This document shows, in pieces, positions 3,105 to 57,250 of a stretch of 64,000 nucleotides of DNA. The DNA is from Eubacteriales bacterium (GTDB lineage Bacteria > Bacillota > Clostridia > Oscillospirales > UBA644), in NCBI GenBank assembly GCA_045543655.1, contig JAZPXN010000060.1, positions 5,061-69,060 of the forward strand. The letters are read 5' to 3'. Positions within the stretch are counted from its first letter, which is position 1. Each line of letters begins with the position of its first letter. Both the position numbers and the translations under genes were made by a program. The notes below the pieces were generated by a model. That model saw only the letters and a list, made by a program, of their open reading frames with translations, ran no database searches and was not told where the DNA came from.

Positions 3105-3962
3105 ATGAGTGAAATCAAGCTGACCCTCGCGGCCTTTTCCGACGAAGCTTCGGACCGCCTTGCGGGGCAAATTACGGCCCTGAAGCGCAACGGACTCTCC
3201 CACATGGAAATCCGGGGCGTGGAGAGGATCAATTGCGCAGACCTGAAGGCGGAACAGGCAAAAGAGATCCGCAAAGCCATGGACGACGCGGGAATGAAGA
3301 TCAAGACCGTCGGCTCTCCCATCGGGAAGATCAATATTACCGACGATTTCGACGGGGAGATGGAAAAATTTCTCCGGCTGACCGAAACGGCAGAAATTCT
3401 GGGAGCGGAAAAGATCCGCATCTTCAGCTTCTACCGCAACGAGGTTCTGGAGGAGCAGGCGGGGCGGCAGATCGCCCTGGCACGGCTTCGGAAGCTTGCC
3501 GACCGGGCGGGAGACTTGATCCTCTGCCACGAAAACGAAAAGGGAATTTACGGCGACGGCTGGGAATTCTGCCGGACGATCTGCCGGGAAATTCCGAAAA
3601 TCAAGGCGGTTTTTGACCCTGCCAATTTCGTACAGTGCGGGGTAGACACCCTTCGGGCCTGGCAGGAGTTGAAGGAATACACGGAATATCTACACCTGAA
3701 GGACGCCCTTGCCACCGGCGTGGTGGTCCCCTGCGGAGACGGCATCGGAAACGTCCCCTATATTTTGGGAGACTATCTCGACCGGGGCGGCCGCTTTGCT
3801 ACGCTGGAGCCCCATCTTGCGAACTTCACGATGAAAAAACAACTGGAAAAAGAGGCCGACGAGACCTGCAATTATTCCTTTGCCGATCCCGACGAGGCCT
3901 TTGACGCGGCGGTTGCGGCCGTCCGTAAAATACTTGACGGAAAAGGAGTCGTTGCACAATGA
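3105..3962 (+). CDS. Sugar phosphate isomerase/epimerase (xylose-isomerase-like TIM barrel)
   Basis: MSEIKLTLAAFSDEAS...GLSHMEIRGV...IRIFSF...CHENEKGIYGD is typical of the AP-endonuclease-2/xylose-isomerase-like fold. I chose the start at the ATG downstream of the promoter. The stop overlaps the next start (ATGA). Confidence 0.7.
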   Translation: MSEIKLTLAAFSDEASDRLAGQITALKRNGLSHMEIRGVERINCADLKAEQAKEIRKAMDDAGMKIKTVGSPIGKINITDDFDGEMEKFLRLTETAEILGAEKIRIFSFYRNEVLEEQAGRQIALARLRKLADRAGDLILCHENEKGIYGDGWEFCRTICREIPKIKAVFDPANFVQCGVDTLRAWQELKEYTEYLHLKDALATGVVVPCGDGIGNVPYILGDYLDRGGRFATLEPHLANFTMKKQLEKEADETCNYSFADPDEAFDAAVAAVRKILDGKGVVAQ

Positions 3963-11628: not shown

Positions 11629-13293
11629 ATGATCCGCGCAAAGATTATCTCTTCCCTTGAAAAGTGCTTTATCGACGAAAACGTCAGAAGCAAGCCCGCC
11701 CTGTCTTCCGCATCCATGCTGAAGAACGAACGCTATTCCTTCCAGATCTGCTACGACAACGGAATGGAACCGGTTCGGGGGGCCAGAGATTACGTACTGA
11801 AGATCGACTCTCCGCTGGAAAAATACGTCAGCGTGTACAACGTGAGACAGATCCCGTCCTATATGCCCTGTTTCCCGGAGCATATCGACGACAACTATCT
11901 GCGCACCACACCGGGGCTTTATCCCGACCTTCTGGAGCCCTTCCGCTACAAGAGTGACCGCTTCGGGCCGGATCGCACCCTGCGCTCCCTGTGGTTTGAG
12001 ATCGACCCCCAGGGGAACGCGGAGCCGGGCATCTATCCCCTTCGGATCCTGATCCGCAAAGCGGGCACCCGGAAGCCGGAGGTCGAGCTGACGCTGAAGC
12101 TGGAGATCATCAACGCCGAGCTTCCCAAGCAGGAAATGAAATACACCCAATGGTTCTACACCGATTGCCTGATGGATCAGTACGAGGTACGGGCGTGGAG
12201 CGAAAAGCATTGGAAAATTATTGAAAACTTCATGAAAAACGCCGTAAAATACGGCCAAAACATGATTCTGACCCCCATCGTCACCCCGGAGCTGGACACC
12301 CACGTCGGCGGGGAGCGGCCTACCACCCAGCTGGTGGACGTGGTAAAGACCTCCGACGGATACGAGTTCAACTTCGATAAGCTGGGCCGCTGGGTAGATC
12401 TTTGCGACAAGGTCGGCATCCAATGGCTGGAGATCTGCCATCTTTATTCCCAGTGGGGCGCCGTAGCCTGCCCGAAGGTCGTGGCGAAGGTGGACGGCAA
12501 GCTGAAGAAGATCTTCGGCTGGAACACCCCCTCCGACGGAGACGAATACAAGACCTTCCTTTCCGCCCTGCTCCCGCAGATGCTGGAATATCTGAAGACC
12601 AAAAAGAACGGCGCGGACAAGCGCTGCTGGTTCCATATTTCCGACGAGCCCAGCATGGATCATCTGGAGCAGTATAAGAAGCTCAGCGATTTCCTCAAGC
12701 CCATTCTGAAGGGGTATCCCATTATGGACGCGCTGTCCAACGTGGACTTCTACGATCAGGGACTGGTAGAGCATCCCGTGCCCTCCACCAATCATATCGA
12801 GCCCTTCCTGGAACGGAACATCCCCGATCTCTGGACTTATTATTGCTGCGGACAGTGCAAGCAGGTCTCCAATCGCTTCCTGTCCATGCCGAGCGCCCGC
12901 AACCGGATCATCGGGCTTCAGTTCTATAAGTACGATATTGCAGGCTTCCTGCAATGGGGCTACAATAACTACAACACCCGCCAGGCCTACGCAAAGGTCA
13001 ACCCCTATCTGTTCTCCGACGGAGACAACTGGGTGCAGTCCGGGGATCCCTTCTCGGTTTATCCCGGAAAGGGAGGTCAGCCCTGGCCCTCTCTGCGGCA
13101 GGTCGTCTTTGCGGAGGGACTTCAGGATATGCAGGCCCTGAAGTTGTGCGAAGAGCTGTACGGCAGAGAACGGGTGCTGGAGGAGCTGGAAAAAGGCATT
13201 GACCCCATTACCTTTAAGGTGTATCCCCACTCCGCCCAATGGCTTTTGCACCTGCGGCAGAGAATCAACGATATGATCAAAGCAAAAGTATAA
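11629..13293 (+). CDS. DUF4091 / GH123-like glycoside hydrolase, paralog 1 (no signal peptide)
   Basis: N-terminus SSLEKCFIDEN...SMLKNERYSFQICY, then LRTTPGLYPDLLEP, WFYTDC, and CWFHISDEP carrying an Asp-Glu pair. Confidence 0.65.
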   Translation: MIRAKIISSLEKCFIDENVRSKPALSSASMLKNERYSFQICYDNGMEPVRGARDYVLKIDSPLEKYVSVYNVRQIPSYMPCFPEHIDDNYLRTTPGLYPDLLEPFRYKSDRFGPDRTLRSLWFEIDPQGNAEPGIYPLRILIRKAGTRKPEVELTLKLEIINAELPKQEMKYTQWFYTDCLMDQYEVRAWSEKHWKIIENFMKNAVKYGQNMILTPIVTPELDTHVGGERPTTQLVDVVKTSDGYEFNFDKLGRWVDLCDKVGIQWLEICHLYSQWGAVACPKVVAKVDGKLKKIFGWNTPSDGDEYKTFLSALLPQMLEYLKTKKNGADKRCWFHISDEPSMDHLEQYKKLSDFLKPILKGYPIMDALSNVDFYDQGLVEHPVPSTNHIEPFLERNIPDLWTYYCCGQCKQVSNRFLSMPSARNRIIGLQFYKYDIAGFLQWGYNNYNTRQAYAKVNPYLFSDGDNWVQSGDPFSVYPGKGGQPWPSLRQVVFAEGLQDMQALKLCEELYGRERVLEELEKGIDPITFKVYPHSAQWLLHLRQRINDMIKAKV

Positions 13294-13308
13294 GCGAGGT
13301 ATCCGACG

Positions 13309-14979
13309 ATGATGCAAGCAAAACTTCTTTCTTCTCTGGAAAAATGCTTCCTGGACGAAAATATCCTGACCAAAAAGCCTCTTGGCCGGTCTTCCATGCT
13401 GAAAAACGAACGTTTTTCCTTCCAGGCCTGCTATCAGCGCAACGATAACATCGACGCTAAGGTGATCGTTCACCTGAAGATCGAATCCCCCCTGGAGGAC
13501 GTGATCCACGTCACCAAGGTGCAGCACATCCCCTCCTCCTTCCCGACCTACAACATCCGGGTGGACGATAACTATCTGCGCACCACGCCCGGCCTTTACC
13601 CCGACCTGCTCGAGCCCGTCCGGGGGAAGGACGACCGTCTGGTCACCGACAGAAGCCTGCGGAGCCTGTGGTTTGAGATCGTTCCCGACGGAAAAATCGC
13701 GCCCGGCGTCTATCCCATCAAGCTGACCTTCTTCCGCCCCGATCTGACCGAAAACAATATCGAGGCCGAGCTGGAGACCGAAATTGAGATCATTGATGCA
13801 GAACTGCCCAAGCAGGACCTGATCGTCACCCATTGGTTCTACACCGACTGTCTGATGCAGTATTACGGCGTGGAGGCCTGGAGCGAAAAGCATTGGGAGA
13901 TCATTGAAAACTTCATGATCTCTGCCCGGAGCTACGGCCAAAACATGATTCTGACTCCCCTCGTCTCCCCCGAGCTGGACACCTACGTGGGCGGATACCG
14001 TCCCGTCACCCAGCTTCTGGAGATCGAAAAGAAGGGCGACAAATACGAATTTGATTTCACCCGCCTGGGTCGCTGGATCGATCTGTGCGACAAGGTCGGC
14101 ATGGAATATTTCGAGATCTGCCACCTTTATTCCCAATGGGGCTGCAAGGCCTGCCCGCAGGTCTGGGTCACGGAGGACGGCGAATACAAGCGGGTCTTCG
14201 GCTGGGATACGGAGGCCGCCGGCGACGATTATAAGAATTTCCTCTCTCAGATGATCCCCGCCTTCCTGAAATATATGAAGGAGGACCGGAAGGGCGCCGA
14301 CAAGCGCTGCTGGTTCCATCTGTCCGATGAGCCCAACGAAAAGCATCTGGAGCAGTACAAGACTCTGAGCGCCTTCCTCAAGCCCCTCATCGAGGGCTAT
14401 CCCATGATGGACGCCCTTTCCAAATACGAATTCTACGAGCAGGGTCTGGTGGATCATCCCATCCCGGGGACCAACCATATCGAGCCCTTCCTGGAGCACA
14501 ACGTGCCCGAGCTTTGGACCTACTATTGCTGCAGCCAGGCGGTAGACGTTTCCAACCGGTTCTTCTCCATGCCCAGCGCCCGGAACCGTATCCTGGGGCT
14601 TCAGCTGTATAAGTACAATATCTACGGCTTCCTGCAATGGGGCTTCAACTTCTACAACAATCAGTATTCCTACGGCACCATCAACCCCTTCTACTGCTCC
14701 GACGGGGAGGATTTCGTGCCCTCCGGCGACGCCTATATCGTCTACCCCGGCACCGACGGCAAGGCCTGGTCTTCCCTGCGCCAGCTGGTCTTCAACGAGG
14801 GGCTGCAGGATATGCGGGCCATGAAGCTGCTGGAGGAACTGTACGGCCGGGGAAAGGCCATGGAGGTTCTGGAAGCAGGCATCGAGCCCATCACCTTCAA
14901 GAAATATCCCAAGGATGACGAATACATCCTTTCCCTGCGCCGCCGAATCAACGATATGATCAAGGCGAAGGTTCAGTAA
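13309..14979 (+). CDS. DUF4091 / GH123-like glycoside hydrolase, paralog 2
   Basis: Collinear with paralog 1 (SSLEKCFLDEN, LRTTPGLYPDLLEP, WFYTDC, CWFHLSDEP, FSMPSARNRI). Confidence 0.65.
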   Translation: MMQAKLLSSLEKCFLDENILTKKPLGRSSMLKNERFSFQACYQRNDNIDAKVIVHLKIESPLEDVIHVTKVQHIPSSFPTYNIRVDDNYLRTTPGLYPDLLEPVRGKDDRLVTDRSLRSLWFEIVPDGKIAPGVYPIKLTFFRPDLTENNIEAELETEIEIIDAELPKQDLIVTHWFYTDCLMQYYGVEAWSEKHWEIIENFMISARSYGQNMILTPLVSPELDTYVGGYRPVTQLLEIEKKGDKYEFDFTRLGRWIDLCDKVGMEYFEICHLYSQWGCKACPQVWVTEDGEYKRVFGWDTEAAGDDYKNFLSQMIPAFLKYMKEDRKGADKRCWFHLSDEPNEKHLEQYKTLSAFLKPLIEGYPMMDALSKYEFYEQGLVDHPIPGTNHIEPFLEHNVPELWTYYCCSQAVDVSNRFFSMPSARNRILGLQLYKYNIYGFLQWGFNFYNNQYSYGTINPFYCSDGEDFVPSGDAYIVYPGTDGKAWSSLRQLVFNEGLQDMRAMKLLEELYGRGKAMEVLEAGIEPITFKKYPKDDEYILSLRRRINDMIKAKVQ

Positions 14980-15052
14980 AATCAATGAAATCCGCCACCG
15001 CATTTCCCTCTTGTCACAAGGGGGAAATGCTCATATTACGAGGTGCTTTACC

Positions 15053-16723
15053 ATGCGTGTCAAACTTCTTTCCTCTCTGGAAAAGTGCTTTCTCGACGAA
15101 AGCATTTTCGACAAGGCCGACGCCCCCGAAGGCTGCTCCATGCTGAAAAACGAAAAATTCTCCTTTCAGATCTGCTACGACATGGAAGAAACCGTAATGA
15201 ATCACCAATGGGTGCAGATGAAGATCGTCTCCCCCCTGAAGGAGTATCTCCGCCTCTACCGGGTGCGGCAGATCCCCTCGTCTCTGCCCGTTTTCCGGGA
15301 CAAGACCGACGACTATTATCTCCGGAAAACCCCGGGGCTGTATCCCGATCTGCTGGAGCCCTACGAGGAAATGGGCCGGCTGACGGCGGACAACAATCTG
15401 AACGCAGTCTGGCTGGAATTCGATCCCCAAGGAAAGGCAGTGGCCGGCGTCTATCCCGTCAAGGCGATTTTTTATAAGAACGACACCGACGAGATTTTGG
15501 GAGAAGTCGAAACCGAAATCGAGATCATCGACGCGGAATTGCCAAAGCAGGAGTTGATCTATACCCAATGGTTTTATCCCGACTGCCTGGCCGATTATTA
15601 CGGCGTCACCGCCTTTGAAGAAGAGCATTGGCGGATCACGGAAAATTTCTTAAGAGCCGCCCGGGAATACGGGCAGAATATGATCCTGACCCCTCTGTTC
15701 ACCACCGTGCTGAACTCCGCAAAAGGGGAAATCTACCGCACCCGAAGTCAGCTCGTAGGGGTGGAAAAGAAGGGGAACGAATACTCCTTTGATTTTACCC
15801 AACTGGGGCGTTGGGTGGATCTGTGCGATAAGCTGGGCTTTGAATATTTTGAAATCGGCCACTTCTTTACCCAGGGCGGCGCCCAGTTCTCTCCCAAGGT
15901 CTACGCCACCGAAAACGGGCATCAGATCGAGCTGTTCGGCTGGAACACTCCCTCCGACGCGCCGGAATATTTTGCCTTCCTGGGGGCGTTGATCCCCGCC
16001 ACGATGACCTATCTGCGGGAAGAAAAGCAGGGCGCCGACGCCCGGTGCTGGTTCCATATTTCCGACGAGCCCCGGTCTCAGGATATCGAGCAGTATTGCA
16101 AGCTGAAGGATTTCATCAAGCCTCTCATCGGCGACCGTCCCATTTTCGACGCGCTGTACGATTACCGATTCTACGAGGCGGGCATCGTGGAGCATCCCGT
16201 GCCCTGCACCAATCACGTGAAAGCCTTCGTGGAGCATGACGTGCCCGATCTGTGGGTCTACAATTGCGGCTGGCAGACCAAAGATCACCTGACCAACCGA
16301 ATCTTCTCCATGCCCAGCGCCCGGAACCGGGTGCAGGGGGTGCAGATGTACAAATACGATCTGCAGGGATTTTTGCATTGGGGCTATAACTATTATAATT
16401 CCCAGGGCTCTTATCATCCCATCAACCCCTTTATCTGCTCCGACGGAGAAGGATGGGTGCCCTCCGGGGACACCTACACGGTCTACCCCGCTCCCGACGG
16501 CACGGCCTGGCCGTCCCTGCGGCAGATCGTCTTCAACGAAGGACTGCAGGATCTGCGGGCGCTGAAACTGCTGGAAAAATTCTACGGCAGAGAAAAAGCC
16601 GTGGAAGTGCTGGAGGCAGGCATCGATCCCATCACCTTTGAAGAATATCCCATCGGCGCCGGCTGGCTTCTGAATCTGCGCAAGCGCATCAACGAGCTGA
16701 TCAAAGAAAACGTAACGAAATAA
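15053..16723 (+). CDS. DUF4091 / GH123-like glycoside hydrolase, paralog 3
   Basis: Same collinear motifs (SSLEKCFLDES, KTPGLYPDLLEP, CWFHISDEP, FSMPSARNRV). I chose the start at the ATG 9 nt after GAGGTG. Confidence 0.65.
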   Translation: MRVKLLSSLEKCFLDESIFDKADAPEGCSMLKNEKFSFQICYDMEETVMNHQWVQMKIVSPLKEYLRLYRVRQIPSSLPVFRDKTDDYYLRKTPGLYPDLLEPYEEMGRLTADNNLNAVWLEFDPQGKAVAGVYPVKAIFYKNDTDEILGEVETEIEIIDAELPKQELIYTQWFYPDCLADYYGVTAFEEEHWRITENFLRAAREYGQNMILTPLFTTVLNSAKGEIYRTRSQLVGVEKKGNEYSFDFTQLGRWVDLCDKLGFEYFEIGHFFTQGGAQFSPKVYATENGHQIELFGWNTPSDAPEYFAFLGALIPATMTYLREEKQGADARCWFHISDEPRSQDIEQYCKLKDFIKPLIGDRPIFDALYDYRFYEAGIVEHPVPCTNHVKAFVEHDVPDLWVYNCGWQTKDHLTNRIFSMPSARNRVQGVQMYKYDLQGFLHWGYNYYNSQGSYHPINPFICSDGEGWVPSGDTYTVYPAPDGTAWPSLRQIVFNEGLQDLRALKLLEKFYGREKAVEVLEAGIDPITFEEYPIGAGWLLNLRKRINELIKENVTK

Positions 16724-16738
16724 CCGAAAATATCCCCC

Positions 16739-16767
16739 TTGACAGAATCGGAATTCTCTATTATAAT
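16739..16767 (+). promoter_or_regulatory. Sigma-A-type promoter of the CotH gene
   Basis: TTGACA (16739-16744), 17 nt, TATAAT (16762-16767). Confidence 0.6.
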
Positions 16768-16802
16768 ATATAGTATAGAGAGATTTCTGCAAGGGGGATT
16801 TT

Positions 16803-18497
16803 ATGTCCGGAAAAACAAGAACCGCACTTGTCGCCATCCTGCTTTCGATCGCACTCGCCGCAGTTGCCGCCGTGGGATTCGGCCTTTGGCGTTATTTTCA
16901 GCAAAAGAACGATCCCGCCAATCAAATCCGCTCTCCCCAGATCACCGGGGAGGTCACCTACGCCGGAGTGGAAAAAGGACGAACCGACGCGAATGCGCTG
17001 ATCGGAAGCCTTACCGCCAACGGAAATCCCATGATCTACGACGCCGGAAACGACGTATATTATCTTTCCATAGCCGACGAAGCCATCGGGAACGAAACGG
17101 GCGTCGCCTTTGCCGCCGAGAGCGCCGACGGATCGGCTGTGAATATGGTTTTCCGGGACACGGTGGATCAATATTCCTGGTTCCGTCCGGAGAATAACCG
17201 GGCGTATTTCCTGCGGGTCTATAACGAAACCGAATATCAGTCCGCCACCGTCGTCATTACCACCATGCCCTTCCTGTCCATCGAGACGAAAAACGGGGCG
17301 ACCATCGGCGACGGAGATACCGAATGCACCCTGACGCTTCTGGACGGGAACTGGGAAAAGCACGGCACCGCCGCCTATACCTCTTCCGCCGCTCATATCC
17401 ACGTGCGGGGAGCGTCCTCCCGTTCGTACCCGAAAAAGCCATACCGCATCAATCTGAAGACCGACGATTATGCAGAGCAGAACAAAGTATCTCTTCTGGG
17501 GCTACGGGTGGACGACGACTGGATTCTGGACGCCATGTACATCGACCCGACCCGGATGCATAACAACCTGGCCACGGAGATCTGGAACACCATGTCCAAG
17601 GGCCATTATCCCACCAACAATTCCCCGGCCTCCAAGGGGGAATACGTGGAAGTGATTCTGAACGGCGAATACGTGGGGCTGTACGATCTGCTGGAGCCAG
17701 TAGACCGCAAGCAGCTGGACGTGGATCCGGAAAAGGGACTGATCATCAAAACCAACGATTGGAACGGCACCTATTTCGAAAAAGTAGAGGGATACCCCTC
17801 TTCTGCCGTCTGGATGGGCTTTGAAGTGACCTATCCCAAGGAAAAAGTCACCACCGCCACCTGGGGGGACTTTTACGATCTGGTGGAAGCCACCTCCACC
17901 GCCCGGAAGGATCCGGAATATTTCGAGCAATGGGCCGAGAAATTCGACGTGGAGAACATCACCGACTACTGGCTGTGGCTGACGGTCTTCTCTCTGCGGG
18001 ACAACCGGGGCAAAAACCTCTATTGGTCCACGCTGAATACCGAAGACGAAAACGCAAAGTATTACATGACCCCCTGGGATTGCGACTTAGCCTTCGGCTA
18101 CCGGTTCGGAAAGAAGGAAACCACCCTTCTGGACGTTCAGCACCACAGAGACCACTATGAGAACGATTATATCGACGACTTCCGGTTGGTGACCGAATAT
18201 CTCCGTGCCGATCTGAACGGTTCCCGAAAAACGGTGCAAAACAAATGGAAGACCCTTTCCGCCGAGGGCGGCGTGCTGAACCTGGACTCGGTACTGCAAC
18301 GCATCCGGGAAACCCGGAAATATCTGGACGATACCGGTGCCTGGGCGAGGGAACTGGAGCGCTGGCCCGACAGCATGAATCCCGATCCCGACGAAGAATT
18401 CGAATATATGGAGCAATGGCTTGTGGGCCGCTATCAATGGATGGAGGGCCGCATCGAAGAAATGATGAACGGATTTGAATACGATGAAAAGAAATGA
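16803..18497 (+). CDS. CotH-family (atypical kinase) protein with an N-terminal membrane anchor
   Basis: TM helix TALVAILLSIALAAVAAVGFGLW, then CotH-like blocks: HVRGASSRSYPKKPYRINL, DDDWILDAMYIDPTRMHN, RDNRGKNLYWST, TPWDCDLAFG. Confidence 0.7.
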   Translation: MSGKTRTALVAILLSIALAAVAAVGFGLWRYFQQKNDPANQIRSPQITGEVTYAGVEKGRTDANALIGSLTANGNPMIYDAGNDVYYLSIADEAIGNETGVAFAAESADGSAVNMVFRDTVDQYSWFRPENNRAYFLRVYNETEYQSATVVITTMPFLSIETKNGATIGDGDTECTLTLLDGNWEKHGTAAYTSSAAHIHVRGASSRSYPKKPYRINLKTDDYAEQNKVSLLGLRVDDDWILDAMYIDPTRMHNNLATEIWNTMSKGHYPTNNSPASKGEYVEVILNGEYVGLYDLLEPVDRKQLDVDPEKGLIIKTNDWNGTYFEKVEGYPSSAVWMGFEVTYPKEKVTTATWGDFYDLVEATSTARKDPEYFEQWAEKFDVENITDYWLWLTVFSLRDNRGKNLYWSTLNTEDENAKYYMTPWDCDLAFGYRFGKKETTLLDVQHHRDHYENDYIDDFRLVTEYLRADLNGSRKTVQNKWKTLSAEGGVLNLDSVLQRIRETRKYLDDTGAWARELERWPDSMNPDPDEEFEYMEQWLVGRYQWMEGRIEEMMNGFEYDEKK

Positions 18498-52885: not shown

Positions 52886-53853
52886 AAAGACTCCCCTTTT
52901 TCGGAATGTATTGGCAAAAGGTCGATCCCCTCACCGGTATATTTCATCTCATAAGGGCCGAGAAGTCCGTCGTTTCCGGAAAAGAAACAACCCAACTCCC
53001 GTCCGCCGGAAGAGACAACCCGCTTAAAAATATAGTATTTCCGATCGGTATTGACGGTCAGCTTGGACCGGTCCATTGGCCGGAAGGGCCCTTGAAAGGA
53101 ATCCGCGCAATAAACGAAATTACTGTACCAAACCGTGGCAAAATCGTCCTTGGAATCGGGATCCACCACGCAGGCACCGAAATACAGATACCATTTCCCG
53201 TCCTTTTCCCAGACCTGACTCGTCTCACCCCGATCAATGCCGGGAGTGCACATCGCCAGCCGGTAAGGCTCCCAATGAAGACAGTCCGAGGAGCGAAACA
53301 TGGCCTGACAAGCCCGGTTGTTTTTGGTCTGATCCAACGCGAAGGAATTCACGTAACAATAGTAATATCCGTCGATAGGCTCGGGATAAATATAGGGGTC
53401 TGCGAGGATCCGAACGGGATGCGTACTCCCCTCGTATTCCAGCTCGTAAATACGTTGGGAATCAATCACCGGACCGTCGCCAATTTTTTTCCAGCAGCTC
53501 AGATCGTCGCTGACCGCCAAGGCAAGCCCTTTCTTCGACCCGTGAGCGGTATAAAGCATATAAAATCGGCCCTTATGCCGCACGACACTGCCCGTCGCCA
53601 GATTCCCGTCAGGAAAGCCACCTTCCACCCGGCCCCGGAGCACCGTGCCGCAATATTCCCATTCCTTCAGATCCCGGGAAACGCCGTGGCCGATACGCTG
53701 ATCGAAGCTGCCATCTTCCAGGGGATGGAATTCCAAAAAATAGGAGTGATAAACACCCCGGTCTTCGGCAAACCAATAATCGCAGGTACGCAGATCTCCC
53801 GGTCGATAGAACCAGAATTCTCCGCCCCGATCCGGTCCGGAATAATAAGTCAT
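52882..53853 (-). CDS. Five-bladed beta-propeller glycoside hydrolase-like protein (GH32/GH43-like, cytoplasmic)
   Basis: Propeller-type repeats with CDYWFAEDRG, an ADPYIY motif (RDP-like) and ETSQVW (EC-like). The assignment is tentative. Confidence 0.45.
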   Translation of the reverse strand: MTYYSGPDRGGEFWFYRPGDLRTCDYWFAEDRGVYHSYFLEFHPLEDGSFDQRIGHGVSRDLKEWEYCGTVLRGRVEGGFPDGNLATGSVVRHKGRFYMLYTAHGSKKGLALAVSDDLSCWKKIGDGPVIDSQRIYELEYEGSTHPVRILADPYIYPEPIDGYYYCYVNSFALDQTKNNRACQAMFRSSDCLHWEPYRLAMCTPGIDRGETSQVWEKDGKWYLYFGACVVDPDSKDDFATVWYSNFVYCADSFQGPFRPMDRSKLTVNTDRKYYIFKRVVSSGGRELGCFFSGNDGLLGPYEMKYTGEGIDLLPIHSEKGESL

Positions 53854-53869: not shown

Positions 53870-54550
53870 CTATTTCAACAACATAAATCCAATGGCGTTG
53901 ATGGCAAAATTGGCAAACATATGAACGATCCACGAGACGAACAGGGTGCCGCCCTTTTCATTCAAAAGATTAAAGATCACCCCGCCCGCCGCAAGGCCGA
54001 CCATGACGAGTAGGAACAGAGGAAGAGAGAACCATCCGATCATCATCGCCGCATGATAGAGAGAAAAAAGCAGAGCGCTGACGGCGTGGGCGAAGATACG
54101 GTTCGTGGAATTTTTCAGATTGGAAAACACGAAGCCCCGAAAGAAAAATTCCTCCAGAAGAGAGTTGATAAAAGAAATATAAATTGCAACAAAAATAAAA
54201 TTATCTCCGTTCACTCCCGTGGAGGCGGTGAGGGAGGTTGCGATGTTGGAAAAATCGAAATAGGGGGACAGCAAAAAATATCCGCCTAAGATCACGGCAA
54301 AGACGGCGGCGCCCAGTCCCAGGGCAAGAAGCAACCCTTTCCGGTTGACCCGAAAGAGAGATCGGCAGGCGATTTCCCGGTTCCACAACGAACAGAGAAA
54401 GGGCATGAGAAGAAACAGCCCGATTTTTACGGCGGATTTCAGGGCGTAGCCCGGCATCCATACGCCGTCCACCCAAGCCATCACGCCGCAACACAGCACC
54501 GCGGCCAAAAGAACCGAAATAAACACCTTTTTGCGATTCGAAACCGGCAT
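53870..54550 (-). CDS. CPBP-family intramembrane glutamic endopeptidase (CAAX protease/Abi)
   Basis: Motifs EEFFFRG, FSLYHA and HMFANF in a multi-TM protein. Confidence 0.8.
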   Translation of the reverse strand: MPVSNRKKVFISVLLAAVLCCGVMAWVDGVWMPGYALKSAVKIGLFLLMPFLCSLWNREIACRSLFRVNRKGLLLALGLGAAVFAVILGGYFLLSPYFDFSNIATSLTASTGVNGDNFIFVAIYISFINSLLEEFFFRGFVFSNLKNSTNRIFAHAVSALLFSLYHAAMMIGWFSLPLFLLVMVGLAAGGVIFNLLNEKGGTLFVSWIVHMFANFAINAIGFMLLK

Positions 54551-54576: not shown

Positions 54577-54605
54577 ATTATAGCATAAAATCCCGGAAAT
54601 AGCAA
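54577..54605 (-). promoter_or_regulatory. Sigma-A-type promoter of the CPBP operon
   Basis: On the minus strand: TTGCTA, 17 nt, TATAAT with an extended TGc. It overlaps the 9-bp inverted repeat tcccggaaa / tttccggga. Confidence 0.55.
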
Positions 54606-54635
54606 GACTTTCCGGGAAAATTTGTATATGAAATT

Positions 54636-54652
54636 TTTCGCAGAGGTATGAA
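54636..54652. repeat. Left arm of a perfect 17-bp inverted repeat (candidate inverton IR-L)
   Basis: tttcgcagaggtatgaa is the exact reverse complement of 54925-54941. Confidence 0.9.
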
Positions 54653-54882
54653 ATCCGTGAAAAACGCCGCAACCCCAACGCCCCATTCCCCCACCGACGG
54701 CGGATTTTGACGGCGATGACACGGCGTCGGCTGCCGGAACGGGCGGAGAATTCCGGAAAATTCCGACGGCAACCGGGACGGCACAAAGAGACAATGCGAC
54801 AAAAATAACGCCGCATAATAATAAATAGGTAGCCAAAAATCCAAATTTTTTGTAAATTATATCATTTCAAAGAGAAAAATTG

Positions 54883-54911
54883 TTGCATTTTGATACGAAA
54901 TATGGTAAAAT
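54883..54911 (+). promoter_or_regulatory. Sigma-A-type promoter located inside the IR-bounded segment, facing the TasA-like gene
   Basis: TTGCAT (54883-54888), 17 nt, TAAAAT (54906-54911) with an extended TGg. Confidence 0.6.
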
Positions 54912-54924
54912 AAAAATCGTAGAG

Positions 54925-54941
54925 TTCATACCTCTGCGAAA
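54925..54941. repeat. Right arm of the perfect 17-bp inverted repeat (candidate inverton IR-R)
   Basis: ttcatacctctgcgaaa lies between the promoter and the RBS of the 54974 gene. Confidence 0.9.
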
Positions 54942-54973
54942 TAATTTTATTCAATCCGATTAGGAGGTAAAGT

Positions 54974-57046
54974 ATGCAAAAGCACACCAAAAAAGCATTG
55001 ATGCTCAGCGTTCTTTCGTTGGTTCTCTGCGTATCCATGCTGGTCGGCACCACTTTCGCGTGGTTCACCGACTCCGTCACCACCGGAGTCAACACCATCC
55101 AGTCCGGTACTCTTGATATCGTTCTGGAATACTCCACCGACGACGGTGCAACCTGGAATAACGCCGAAGGCAAGACTCTGAATTTCCAGAAAGCCGCAGG
55201 CGCCCCCGCCAATGAAGCGATTCTTTGGGAACCCGGTTGTACCTACGCTCTGCCCATGCTCCGTCTGCGGAACAACGGCAACCTGGCTCTGAAGTACAAC
55301 TTCGTTGTCAACGGCGTTGACGGCGACGCGAAGCTTCTCGAAGCCATCGAATGGAAGATCGAGATTGCAAACAATGACCCCGTCACCCTCGCCAACTACA
55401 GCGGCACGCTTCTGACCAAGGACGCGGTTTCCGACGAACTCGTCATCATGGGTCATATGAAGGAAGAAGCCGGCAACGAATACCAGGGCCTGGAAATCAA
55501 AGGCATTGGCATCACCGTCTTTGCCACTCAGATGACCCACGAATCCGACTCCTTCAACAATCAGTACGACAAGATGGCCACCATCGACGATGAAGCTGAA
55601 CTGGCCGCCGCTCTTGCCGCAGATTACGATCTGATCGTTCTGGGCGCTGACATCGAACTGACCGAAGGTATCGTCATTCCCGCCGGCAAGACCGTCACCA
55701 TCGACCTGGCAGGCTTCGATATCAAGCAGACCAAGGCCTGTACTGCTTCTTATGAGATGATTGGAAACAACGGCACTCTGACGATCAAAGACAGCGTCGG
55801 AACCGGCAGAATCTCCTTCACCGATACCGGAGCAGGCGATCCTAACGTTGGTTGGGCAAGTTACACCATCCGCAATTCCGGAACGCTGACCGTAGAAAGC
55901 GGTATCATTGAACACCTTGGAACCCAGCCCTACAACGGGAACAACGCCATCTTCCACTACAACGGCACCACGACCATCAACGGTGGTAAGATTGAAGCTC
56001 CCTATAGCCGTTCTCTCCGCATCTGGAACGGTTCTGCCACCATCAACGGAGGCGCCTTCGACGGTCAGGTCTGGGTGCAGTCTCAGGGCAACGCAGAACT
56101 CACCATTAACGATGGGTCCTTTAAGCCCGCCACCCATGGCGGAGACTATTCCTCCGTCTTCGTAACGGTCGGAGCGAAGAATGCTTCCGTGAAGCTTGCC
56201 GGCGGCACCTACGCCACCAAGGTCGGCACCGATAAGGCAGACTCGATCGAGATCACTGGCGGTACCTATGCCGTCGATCCCACTGCATTCGTTGCTGACG
56301 GCTATATGGCTGTCGAAAATGCAAATGGTACTTATACTGTTGTAGAAATTCCTAAGGCTGCAACCACGGCGGAGCTTGAAGCAGCTATTTCCAAGGGCGG
56401 CGTAGTTCAGTTGACCGCTGACGTTGCTCTCTCCGATACTCTTATGAATACAAAGGACGTTACGATCGATCTTAACGGTCATAAGGTAGATGCCGGCTCC
56501 TCTACTTTGTTCCAGTCCCAGAGCAATGCGGCCCCCAACATAATCATCACCTCGTCCAAAGACGGTGCAGAGATCAACGTATCCGGAGGCGATACGGCGG
56601 TGCTCCTCGGATACGGTAGCACTGTGATCGAAAACGTCACGATCAATGTAACAGGCTGCGATAACTATTCTCCCAATCCTTTCAACGTGTACGGAGACCT
56701 TACTCTTGGTGAAGACACCGTTGTTAACGTTGATTACCTTGGCACCGCACTTATAAACAATAATGGCAAAGTCGCAGTCGTTATCGACGGTGCAAAGATC
56801 AACGTCGGTACCTTCAAGACGAATGGTACTGCTATAATTACTCTTAATCAAGCTTCCACTCTTGAGATCAAAGACACAGATATCGAGATAGATAATTTTG
56901 TGCTTTCTCCCTTTGGTGGCGATAGCTTGGTTTCCAAAGTAAACGGCGTTACAATTGAAGATTGCACGTTTGACGTTACCGACTCTAACGGAGCAAGCTG
57001 CACCTTCGAAGCCAAAGACGGTAAATACCGTTTGGTACAGAACTAA
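54974..57046 (+). CDS. Large secreted protein: SipW-type signal peptide + TasA/camelysin-like domain + C-terminal beta-helix-like repeat region
   Basis: The N-terminus ...LVGTTFAWFTDSVTTGVNTIQSGTLDIVLE parallels TasA (GGGTWAAFNDIKS...ASGTLDLS). Downstream are repeated GG(T/K/A)(Y/I/F) turns (INGGKIEAP, INGGAFDGQ, LAGGTYATK, ITGGTYAVD). AGGAGG RBS. Confidence 0.7.
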   Translation: MQKHTKKALMLSVLSLVLCVSMLVGTTFAWFTDSVTTGVNTIQSGTLDIVLEYSTDDGATWNNAEGKTLNFQKAAGAPANEAILWEPGCTYALPMLRLRNNGNLALKYNFVVNGVDGDAKLLEAIEWKIEIANNDPVTLANYSGTLLTKDAVSDELVIMGHMKEEAGNEYQGLEIKGIGITVFATQMTHESDSFNNQYDKMATIDDEAELAAALAADYDLIVLGADIELTEGIVIPAGKTVTIDLAGFDIKQTKACTASYEMIGNNGTLTIKDSVGTGRISFTDTGAGDPNVGWASYTIRNSGTLTVESGIIEHLGTQPYNGNNAIFHYNGTTTINGGKIEAPYSRSLRIWNGSATINGGAFDGQVWVQSQGNAELTINDGSFKPATHGGDYSSVFVTVGAKNASVKLAGGTYATKVGTDKADSIEITGGTYAVDPTAFVADGYMAVENANGTYTVVEIPKAATTAELEAAISKGGVVQLTADVALSDTLMNTKDVTIDLNGHKVDAGSSTLFQSQSNAAPNIIITSSKDGAEINVSGGDTAVLLGYGSTVIENVTINVTGCDNYSPNPFNVYGDLTLGEDTVVNVDYLGTALINNNGKVAVVIDGAKINVGTFKTNGTAIITLNQASTLEIKDTDIEIDNFVLSPFGGDSLVSKVNGVTIEDCTFDVTDSNGASCTFEAKDGKYRLVQN

Positions 57047-57212
57047 TTCTAACGGCAATAAACCCAGCCACCCAACTCCCCCCCCGGGGGAGTTGGGCGG
57101 CAGAGAAAGAGCGTGGTATGAAGGCGCTCTTTGTCTGCCGGGCGAACCCGGTATTTTGCATTTGTTTTCCGAAAGAGTTTCGTTCGGTTTCAGGGACAGA
57201 AAATCGGACGAG

Positions 57213-57250
57213 AAAAACCGCCCTTCCCGATCTGGGGAGGGCGGTTTTTT
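57213..57250. terminator. Bidirectional intrinsic terminator
   Basis: 11-bp GC-rich stem (57218-57228 / 57234-57244, one G-U pair) flanked by A5 and T6. Confidence 0.8.

Follow-up and report, generated by a model that had tools for sequence, protein, structure and literature searches.

Invertons are generally bounded by inverted repeats (IRs) of 10 to 40 nt, usually span less than 750 bp and occur at a median of three in Clostridia-like genomes (PMC11892184), and more than 75% of them are shorter than 300 b (PMC11602134). Clostridial examples supported by reads include those of Intestinimonas, with a 14-bp IR around ~228 bp, and of Clostridium sp. D5, with a 26-bp IR around ~206 bp (PMC11892184). 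They represent inverton group 139 of hCom2, in which a tyrosine invertase lies within 5 kb of nearly every Clostridial inverton (PMC11892184). In C. difficile R20291, RecV serves the flgB and cwpV switches, which are among seven invertible sites (PMC7446863), and its sites have been proposed to follow the arm-spacer-arm layout of tyrosine recombinases, which needs matched spacers (PMC12282940). Promoter cassettes of ~300 bp with short IRs also turn fibers or surface structures ON and OFF in E. coli (fimS, inverted by FimB/FimE) and in the capsular and fimbrial invertons of Bacteroides. The fimS element measures 314 bp and has 9-bp IRs. The TasA fiber protein of Bacillus subtilis (tapA-sipW-tasA) is under repressors (SinR/AbrB), not DNA inversion, and our literature search returned no report of an inversion-controlled TasA-family gene.

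The locus described here was found in a stretch of 64 kb (the window) from an 89-kb contig and consists of the following features.

53870 to 54550, minus strand: divergent gene for a CPBP/Rce1-like intramembrane protease (Pfam PF02517), the first gene of its operon
54577 to 54605, minus strand: predicted own promoter of the CPBP operon, TTGCTA-17-TGnTATAAT, outside the IR and kept in sister strains
54636 to 54652, no strand: left IR arm, TTTCGCAGAGGTATGAA, candidate recombination site made of an outer 10 nt and an asymmetric GTATGAA core
54653 to 54924, no strand: IR-bounded segment of 272 bp, putative invertible DNA
54655 to 54800, no strand: GC-rich filler (61 to 65%) within the segment, recognized by its composition profile and fast-evolving
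54883 to 54911, plus strand: predicted sigma-A-type promoter with extended -10, TTGCAT-17-TGgTAAAAT, read from the sequence and facing the TasA-like gene
54917 to 54939, plus strand: dyad TCGTAGAG-TTCATAC-CTCTGCGA, a predicted mRNA 5'-terminal stem-loop or core-type recombinase site (arm-spacer-arm)
54925 to 54941, no strand: right IR arm, TTCATACCTCTGCGAAA, exact reverse complement of the left arm
54974 to 57046, plus strand: putatively regulated gene; its secreted product of 690 aa has a signal peptide of SipW-dependent type, an N-terminal TasA-like domain and, at the C terminus, a long extension
57067 to 57250, no strand: strong terminator hairpins in a cluster, separating the TasA-like gene from the convergent AcnX genes

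We consider it possible, at rather less than even confidence, that the segment is an inverton, namely a 272-bp promoter cassette between 17-bp inverted recombination sites. The candidate is well formed and of typical Clostridial size and, if confirmed, would be a known kind of switch with a new recognition sequence. It comes from the same bacterial class as the members of group 139, is likewise intergenic and beside cell-surface functions, and is of similar dimensions (IR of 17 nt here and 14 to 26 nt there, interior of 272 bp here and ~200 to 230 bp there). However, both orientations are supported by reads in that group and a tyrosine invertase is found within 5 kb (PMC11892184); neither was seen here. 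Like the RecV switches of C. difficile (cwpV, flgB, and cmrRST; PMC7446863, PMC12282940), our segment is short, flanked by IRs, and located before a gene for a surface or secreted protein, in a member of the Clostridia. RecV acts in trans on several distant sites, and the 8-7-8 layout at the right end of our segment resembles its arm-spacer-arm sites, but the RecV motif AWAGTWNCCNTTW-N6-WAANGGNWACTWT was without match in the window at ≤3 mismatches and a RecV-type site was rejected. In addition, flgB and cwpV act after initiation (by Rho or by terminator formation in the leader) with the promoter outside the switch, whereas here the promoter itself would move. Unlike fimS, the segment has no recombinases adjacent, and the family-wide IR motifs and master invertase (Mpi) of the Bacteroides invertons are without counterpart in the form of a visible motif family.

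The perfect 17-bp IR bracketing 272 bp, with arms at 54636 to 54652 and 54925 to 54941, had been claimed by the original prediction and was recovered by direct reading of the sequence; with the repeat finder, the match grew to 25 nt at 88%. No perfect IR of the window with a gap of 30 to 1,000 bp is longer (the runner-up has 14 bp), and the two arms are the only copies of the 17-mer in the window at ≤3 mismatches, versus 0.08 expected. None of 200 first-order Markov simulations gave a 17-bp IR (the maximum was 16, in 2 of 200), and the expectation is ~0.004 to 0.01 perfect IRs of this length per 64-kb window. The repeat is real and unlikely to be due to chance at the level of the window, in agreement with what had been predicted. 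By inspection, the 17-mer is self-complementary at 4 of 17 positions and hence not palindromic. The dyad at the right end matches at 7 of 8 positions, a value reached by 6% of shuffled 51-nt stretches, and that at the left end at only 5 to 6 of 8. Core-site dyad symmetry at the segment ends is thus weakly supported, and the argument for a recombination site drawn from the arm-spacer-arm layout is weak statistically.

Gene calls were based on frame-specific GC content together with Pfam/NCBIfam profiles. The 690-aa protein matched Pfam PF12389 at residues 6 to 52 and carried a SipW-dependent-type signal peptide (NCBIfam TIGR04088, 25.6 bits versus a cut-off of 19), and its N-terminal 180 aa resembled many short proteins at 47 to 70% identity, among which one bears the name TasA family; this agrees with the secreted TasA-like target that had been proposed. 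No PDB match was obtained by sequence. An AF2 model of the N-terminal domain (pLDDT 82.7) gave as best match the Pyrobaculum bundling pilin 7ueg (E = 3e-4), a protein described as TasA-like, followed by donor-strand-exchange pilins, all with modest TM values (0.39 to 0.43). "TasA-like secreted fiber or adhesin protein" is, in our view, a reasonable name for the product, which formed a singleton cluster (best homolog 63% identical). It shares the broad protein class of the Bacillus operon (SipW-type signal peptide, TasA-like fiber domain) but differs in its C-terminal extension of ~500 aa and in that the profile search detected no Peptidase_S26/SipW gene within the 64-kb window; Peptidase_S26 adjoins the TasA-like homologs in L016, L017, and L019. 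The GC3 of the gene is 0.61 versus 0.70 to 0.75 for its neighbors. Downstream, six terminator-like sites (0.7 expected) are followed by genes on the minus strand, and these terminators and the convergent AcnX genes indicate that the TasA-like gene is monocistronic.

On the other side of an intergenic region of 423 bp, the CPBP gene opens a minus-strand operon that continues with a GH43/32-like protein, two PHP-domain proteins, and an ABC exporter. The NCBIfam CPBP models scored under their cut-offs for this protein, and its orthologs were found at 96%, 76%, 75%, and 73% identity. Elsewhere in the window (11629 to 18497) there are three tandem GH123 paralogs (554, 556, and 570 aa) and then a CotH kinase-family protein.

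Only 32 bp, including an AGGAGG at 54962 to 54967, separate the right arm from the ATG of the TasA-like gene, so the promoter of this gene must lie inside the segment, which is predicted to contain its sole plausible one. At the sequence level, this promoter faces the adjacent gene (54974) in one orientation. It is composed of TTGCAT (54883 to 54888), a 17-nt spacer, and TGg plus TAAAAT (54903 to 54911), with matches at 3 of 6 positions of the -35 and 5 of 6 of the -10 in addition to the extended TG. For this reason it was omitted by the consensus scanner, which reported a weaker overlapping match, TTGATA-16-AAAAAT. Of the near-consensus extended -10 promoter that had been placed just inside the right arm, the position (54883 to 54911) and the aim at the large secreted protein gene stood, but the description as near-consensus was an overstatement, given the 3 of 6 and 5 of 6 matches. 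The own promoter assigned to the divergent CPBP operon outside the IRs was also found (minus strand, 54605 to 54577). The right arm would cover approximately +7 to +23 of the predicted transcript, where it gives the loop and the 3' half of the local 8-7-8 dyad, and the predicted 5' untranslated region folds at -17.3 kcal/mol (z = -3.7). Since the 5' half of this stem-loop is internal to the segment and the remainder comes from an arm that is the same at both ends, the transcript would begin with an unchanged stem-loop whichever way the segment is turned, as computed from the flipped sequence.

The interior has an uneven composition, its GC island (54655 to 54800) being flanked by promoter regions of 24 to 32% GC. 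A structured RNA or riboswitch was rejected, since no Rfam family was matched and the interior without the arms is unstructured as RNA (z = -0.5 and -0.7). A small open reading frame was also discarded (Arg-rich junk frames and a 20-aa frame without a properly spaced ribosome binding site), as was, on comparison, a remnant of the Bac_transf gene located ahead of CPBP in relatives. A second perfect IR, of 13 bp (GAATTCTCCGCCC, 53815 to 53827 and 54741 to 54753), encloses the whole CPBP gene together with its promoter and the left arm; its length is that expected by chance in the simulations, and one of the sister-strain contigs (L028) stops at its right copy.

Sister strains were represented by the 96% identical CPBP cluster, found on short contigs, one from each of three other samples (contigs L027, L028, and L029; samples SRR32856650, ERZ28593808, and ERZ27316090). 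Each of them spans the left arm and extends 66 to 100 bp into the interior. The left arm with its immediate flanks (54627 to 54654, 28 nt) is identical in all three. Compared with the most diverged, L027, there are 40 mismatches in 183 intergenic positions (22%) and none in the 17 of the left arm (P = 0.012, for the 17 nt specified in advance), while 27 of 82 positions differ in the interior beside the arm (33%). An arm that stays unchanged as flanks and interior diverge is constrained, unlike the filler, and the conservation of the arms in related strains, a point on which the original prediction could have failed, thus holds for the left one. The interior end adjoining the arm is the same as in the window, which indicates the same orientation in the four left junctions available (window, L027, L028, and L029), these being consensus assemblies that record the majority state only. 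For the right junction of the sister strains, a query with the N-terminal protein sequence gave nothing above 70% identity, and no other assembly of the same strain was retrieved by exact-protein look-up of both flanking genes; the lineage is poorly sampled. The interior ends of all three contigs fall in a stretch of 35 bp (window-equivalent 54718 to 54752), their other ends being spread over ~250 bp, and the last ~17 nt of L027 have no match in the window. These ends are away from the arm edge and so are not the usual branch point of an inverton; the shared end may reflect a boundary that varies between strains, or the GC island may be poorly covered.

At greater distances the arrangement changes. 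In the genus-level relatives L030 and L032 there is no TasA-like gene beside CPBP, which is directly preceded by Bac_transf. In L074, a TasA-like gene does lie next to CPBP, preceded by a plain terminator and by a TTGACA-17-TATACT promoter. No comparable IR was found upstream of the 49 to 70% identical homologs in L016, L021, L024, L074, and L076, where the regions were not alignable, and other TasA-like homologs are found within TasA/SipW-type operons, likewise without a comparable repeat. From these sequences, the TasA-like genes of relatives seem to have ordinary fixed promoters. The GC3 of 0.61 and the absence from relatives suggest that the combination of the TasA-like gene with the segment before it is recent and specific to this lineage, the gene having probably been acquired recently or being strain-variable. 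Some other features of these relatives deserve mention. The TasA-like gene of L074 (GCA_965129065.1, 3392 to 5705) is split into 164 and 612 aa around a run of six C (~3843 to 3848), which is an assembly error or else may mark a slipped-strand on/off site in a related gene. In L031 (GCA_054291685.1, positions 1 to 330), the CPBP ortholog is preceded by tandem units of ~60 nt, (TTTTGCA)n plus TTCCCTTCCCGTTCTCCTCAA, which reach the contig end. In L024 and L025 (1 to 11593), a 49% identical TasA-like homolog immediately follows a sortase/SpaA-type pilus cluster, and a large serine recombinase of 637 aa is encoded ~1.5 kb further on, which suggests that the homolog is carried on a mobile element in that organism.

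As had been stated beforehand, the window has no recombinase gene: no Resolvase, Recombinase, Phage_integrase, or transposase family was detected by Pfam/NCBIfam in any gene of the 64 kb, that is, 54 kb upstream and 9 kb downstream of the segment. The lack of a local recombinase would not be fatal to inversion, yet it counts against it, as very few members of the main Clostridial inverton group lack an invertase within 5 kb. Scans for the 17-mer gave 15 matches in 596 Gb of representative genomes, 41 in metagenome contigs, and 2 in viral contigs, which were rejected as sister loci (single-copy chance matches in unrelated organisms, without homology of the locus). No second locus with paired arms appeared in the window, the representative genomes (596 Gb), the metagenome collection, or the viral contigs, so that no inverton family sharing these arms is visible. 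Further copies of the interior were also missing from the window, the fetched loci of relatives, and the plasmid and phage collections, in which nothing beyond short AT-rich Borrelia matches emerged as a possible mobile-element relative.

If the segment is an inverton, the assembled orientation would be ON, with the internal promoter TTGCAT-17-TGgTAAAAT driving the TasA-like gene alone. The arms would be brought together, and the DNA between them flipped, by a site-specific recombinase whose gene would lie elsewhere in the genome. This enzyme would more likely be a tyrosine recombinase than one of another type, since the identical part of the arm consists of a non-palindromic outer arm and a 7-bp asymmetric core and the right end has an arm-spacer-arm layout. 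After inversion, the TasA-like gene would be left without promoter (OFF), given that just 32 bp remain between the right arm and the ATG, and the flipped promoter, with the same 5' stem-loop, would read via the left arm into the CPBP operon, adding to its own promoter. The predicted flipped junctions would be TTTCGCAGAGGTATGAA abutting CTCTACGATTTTTATTTTACC on the left and GGCGTTTTTCACGGAT abutting TTCATACCTCTGCGAAATAA on the right, and the sequences across them TTTCGCAGAGGTATGAACTCTACGATTTTTATT and CGTTTTTCACGGATTTCATACCTCTGCGAAA; for IR pairs, CGCAGAGGTATG may serve as a further search string beside the 17-mer. The more specific version of this proposal, in which an unlinked invertase acting on an undescribed recognition sequence toggles the promoter between a recently acquired TasA-type gene and the CPBP-protease/glycosidase/ABC-exporter operon, strikes us as doubtful.

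Inversion is favored by an IR that is perfect, unique, and beyond chance, by arm and segment sizes within the published ranges, by a cargo of the usual class (a gene for a secreted or surface protein, monocistronic and followed by terminators), and by a promoter of this gene that cannot sit outside the segment. The unchanged 28-nt block around the left arm points in the same direction, and a distant recombinase has a precedent in RecV (PMC7446863). On the other side, there is no flipped copy among four independent left junctions (majority state of consensus assemblies), no recombinase in the flanking 54 and 9 kb, no second locus with these arms in the collections scanned, no IR before the apparently fixed promoters of the relatives' TasA-like genes, and the end dyads are weak. 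Moreover, non-inverting inverted-repeat promoters are a recognized class (PMC11602134), and a fixed regulatory repeat is an unlikely alternative reading of the same locus. The 17-mer would then be a putative protein-binding site in two copies, of which the right one, over +7 to +23 and within the operator-like dyad TCGTAGAG-N7-CTCTGCGA, would block RNA polymerase and the left one lies ~30 to 50 bp ahead of the CPBP promoter's -35. Both divergent units could answer to a single regulator, possibly by looping of the 289 bp between the sites, and the dyad would also yield the 5' stem-loop of the mRNA. The 7 of 8 dyad over the predicted transcription start, a left arm conserved like the adjoining CPBP promoter, the single orientation in four of four copies, and the window without recombinase all agree with such a regulator. 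Yet the 17-mer (4 of 17 positions self-complementary) suits the end of a recombinase or transposase substrate better than a dimeric regulator, and the left dyad is poor. The identity also covers the 7-nt asymmetric "spacer" beside the 8- to 10-nt outer arm, which regulators rarely constrain and spacer matching requires (PMC12282940). Besides, a centre-to-centre distance of 289 bp makes ~27.5 helical turns, out of phase for looping, and no regulator gene is adjacent.

An immobile, non-inverting MITE-like relic of 306 bp with 17-bp terminal inverted repeats, inserted between the genes and supplying or surrounding the promoter, would fit the size and the terminal-repeat layout, and we judge it improbable. 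The GC-rich interior is unlike its AT-rich surroundings and evolves fast, like non-functional filler; the abutting AAATT (54631 to 54635) and TAATT (54942 to 54946) could be a degraded target duplication, but 4 of 5 identical positions are a weak match in AT-rich DNA. The absence of the TasA-like region from this place in genus-level relatives and its atypical GC3 do indicate that the area was rearranged. Nevertheless, no second copy of arm or interior turned up in the window, the loci of relatives, the 596 Gb of genomes, metagenomes, viral contigs, plasmids, or phages, the window has no transposase, and a dead element would not hold its arm unchanged as the flanks diverge (P = 0.012). That same independent conservation across strains, the failure of all 200 simulations to reach 17 bp, and the location of the repeat exactly around the promoter of a surface-protein gene make a neutral origin without function, by chance match or by a one-off template switch or inverted micro-duplication, somewhat less probable still. 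AT-rich intergenic DNA does increase the odds of such an event, and at ~0.004 to 0.01 expected per window some 17-bp IRs will arise by chance across very many windows. Finally, the arms could pair within one transcript and close a 272-nt domain (e.g., as a leader structure or as a stem processed by RNase III), and the region 54630 to 54950 does fold at z = -4.8 and -5.3 (either strand). These scores are due to the 17-bp helix itself, with the interior alone giving -0.5 and -0.7, and no Rfam family was matched. No plus-strand promoter is predicted to transcribe both arms, the lone minus-strand match is weak and would initiate inside the right arm, and the interior is not conserved, all of which makes such a helix barely credible.

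Should the segment prove not to invert, the locus would be a clean, conserved, promoter-bracketing IR without inversion, of a class that confounds sequence-only inverton predictors. If the two-way toggle is true, it would be the first member of the TasA/SipW matrix proteins controlled by DNA inversion, in an uncultured gut or rumen lineage of the Clostridia, and the arm TTTCGCAGAGGTATGAA would be a new recognition sequence with which to trace the invertase and sister switches in the genome. A well-established principle would be extended by it, not changed: TasA-type matrix or fiber proteins would join the surface structures varied by DNA inversion in gut Clostridia.
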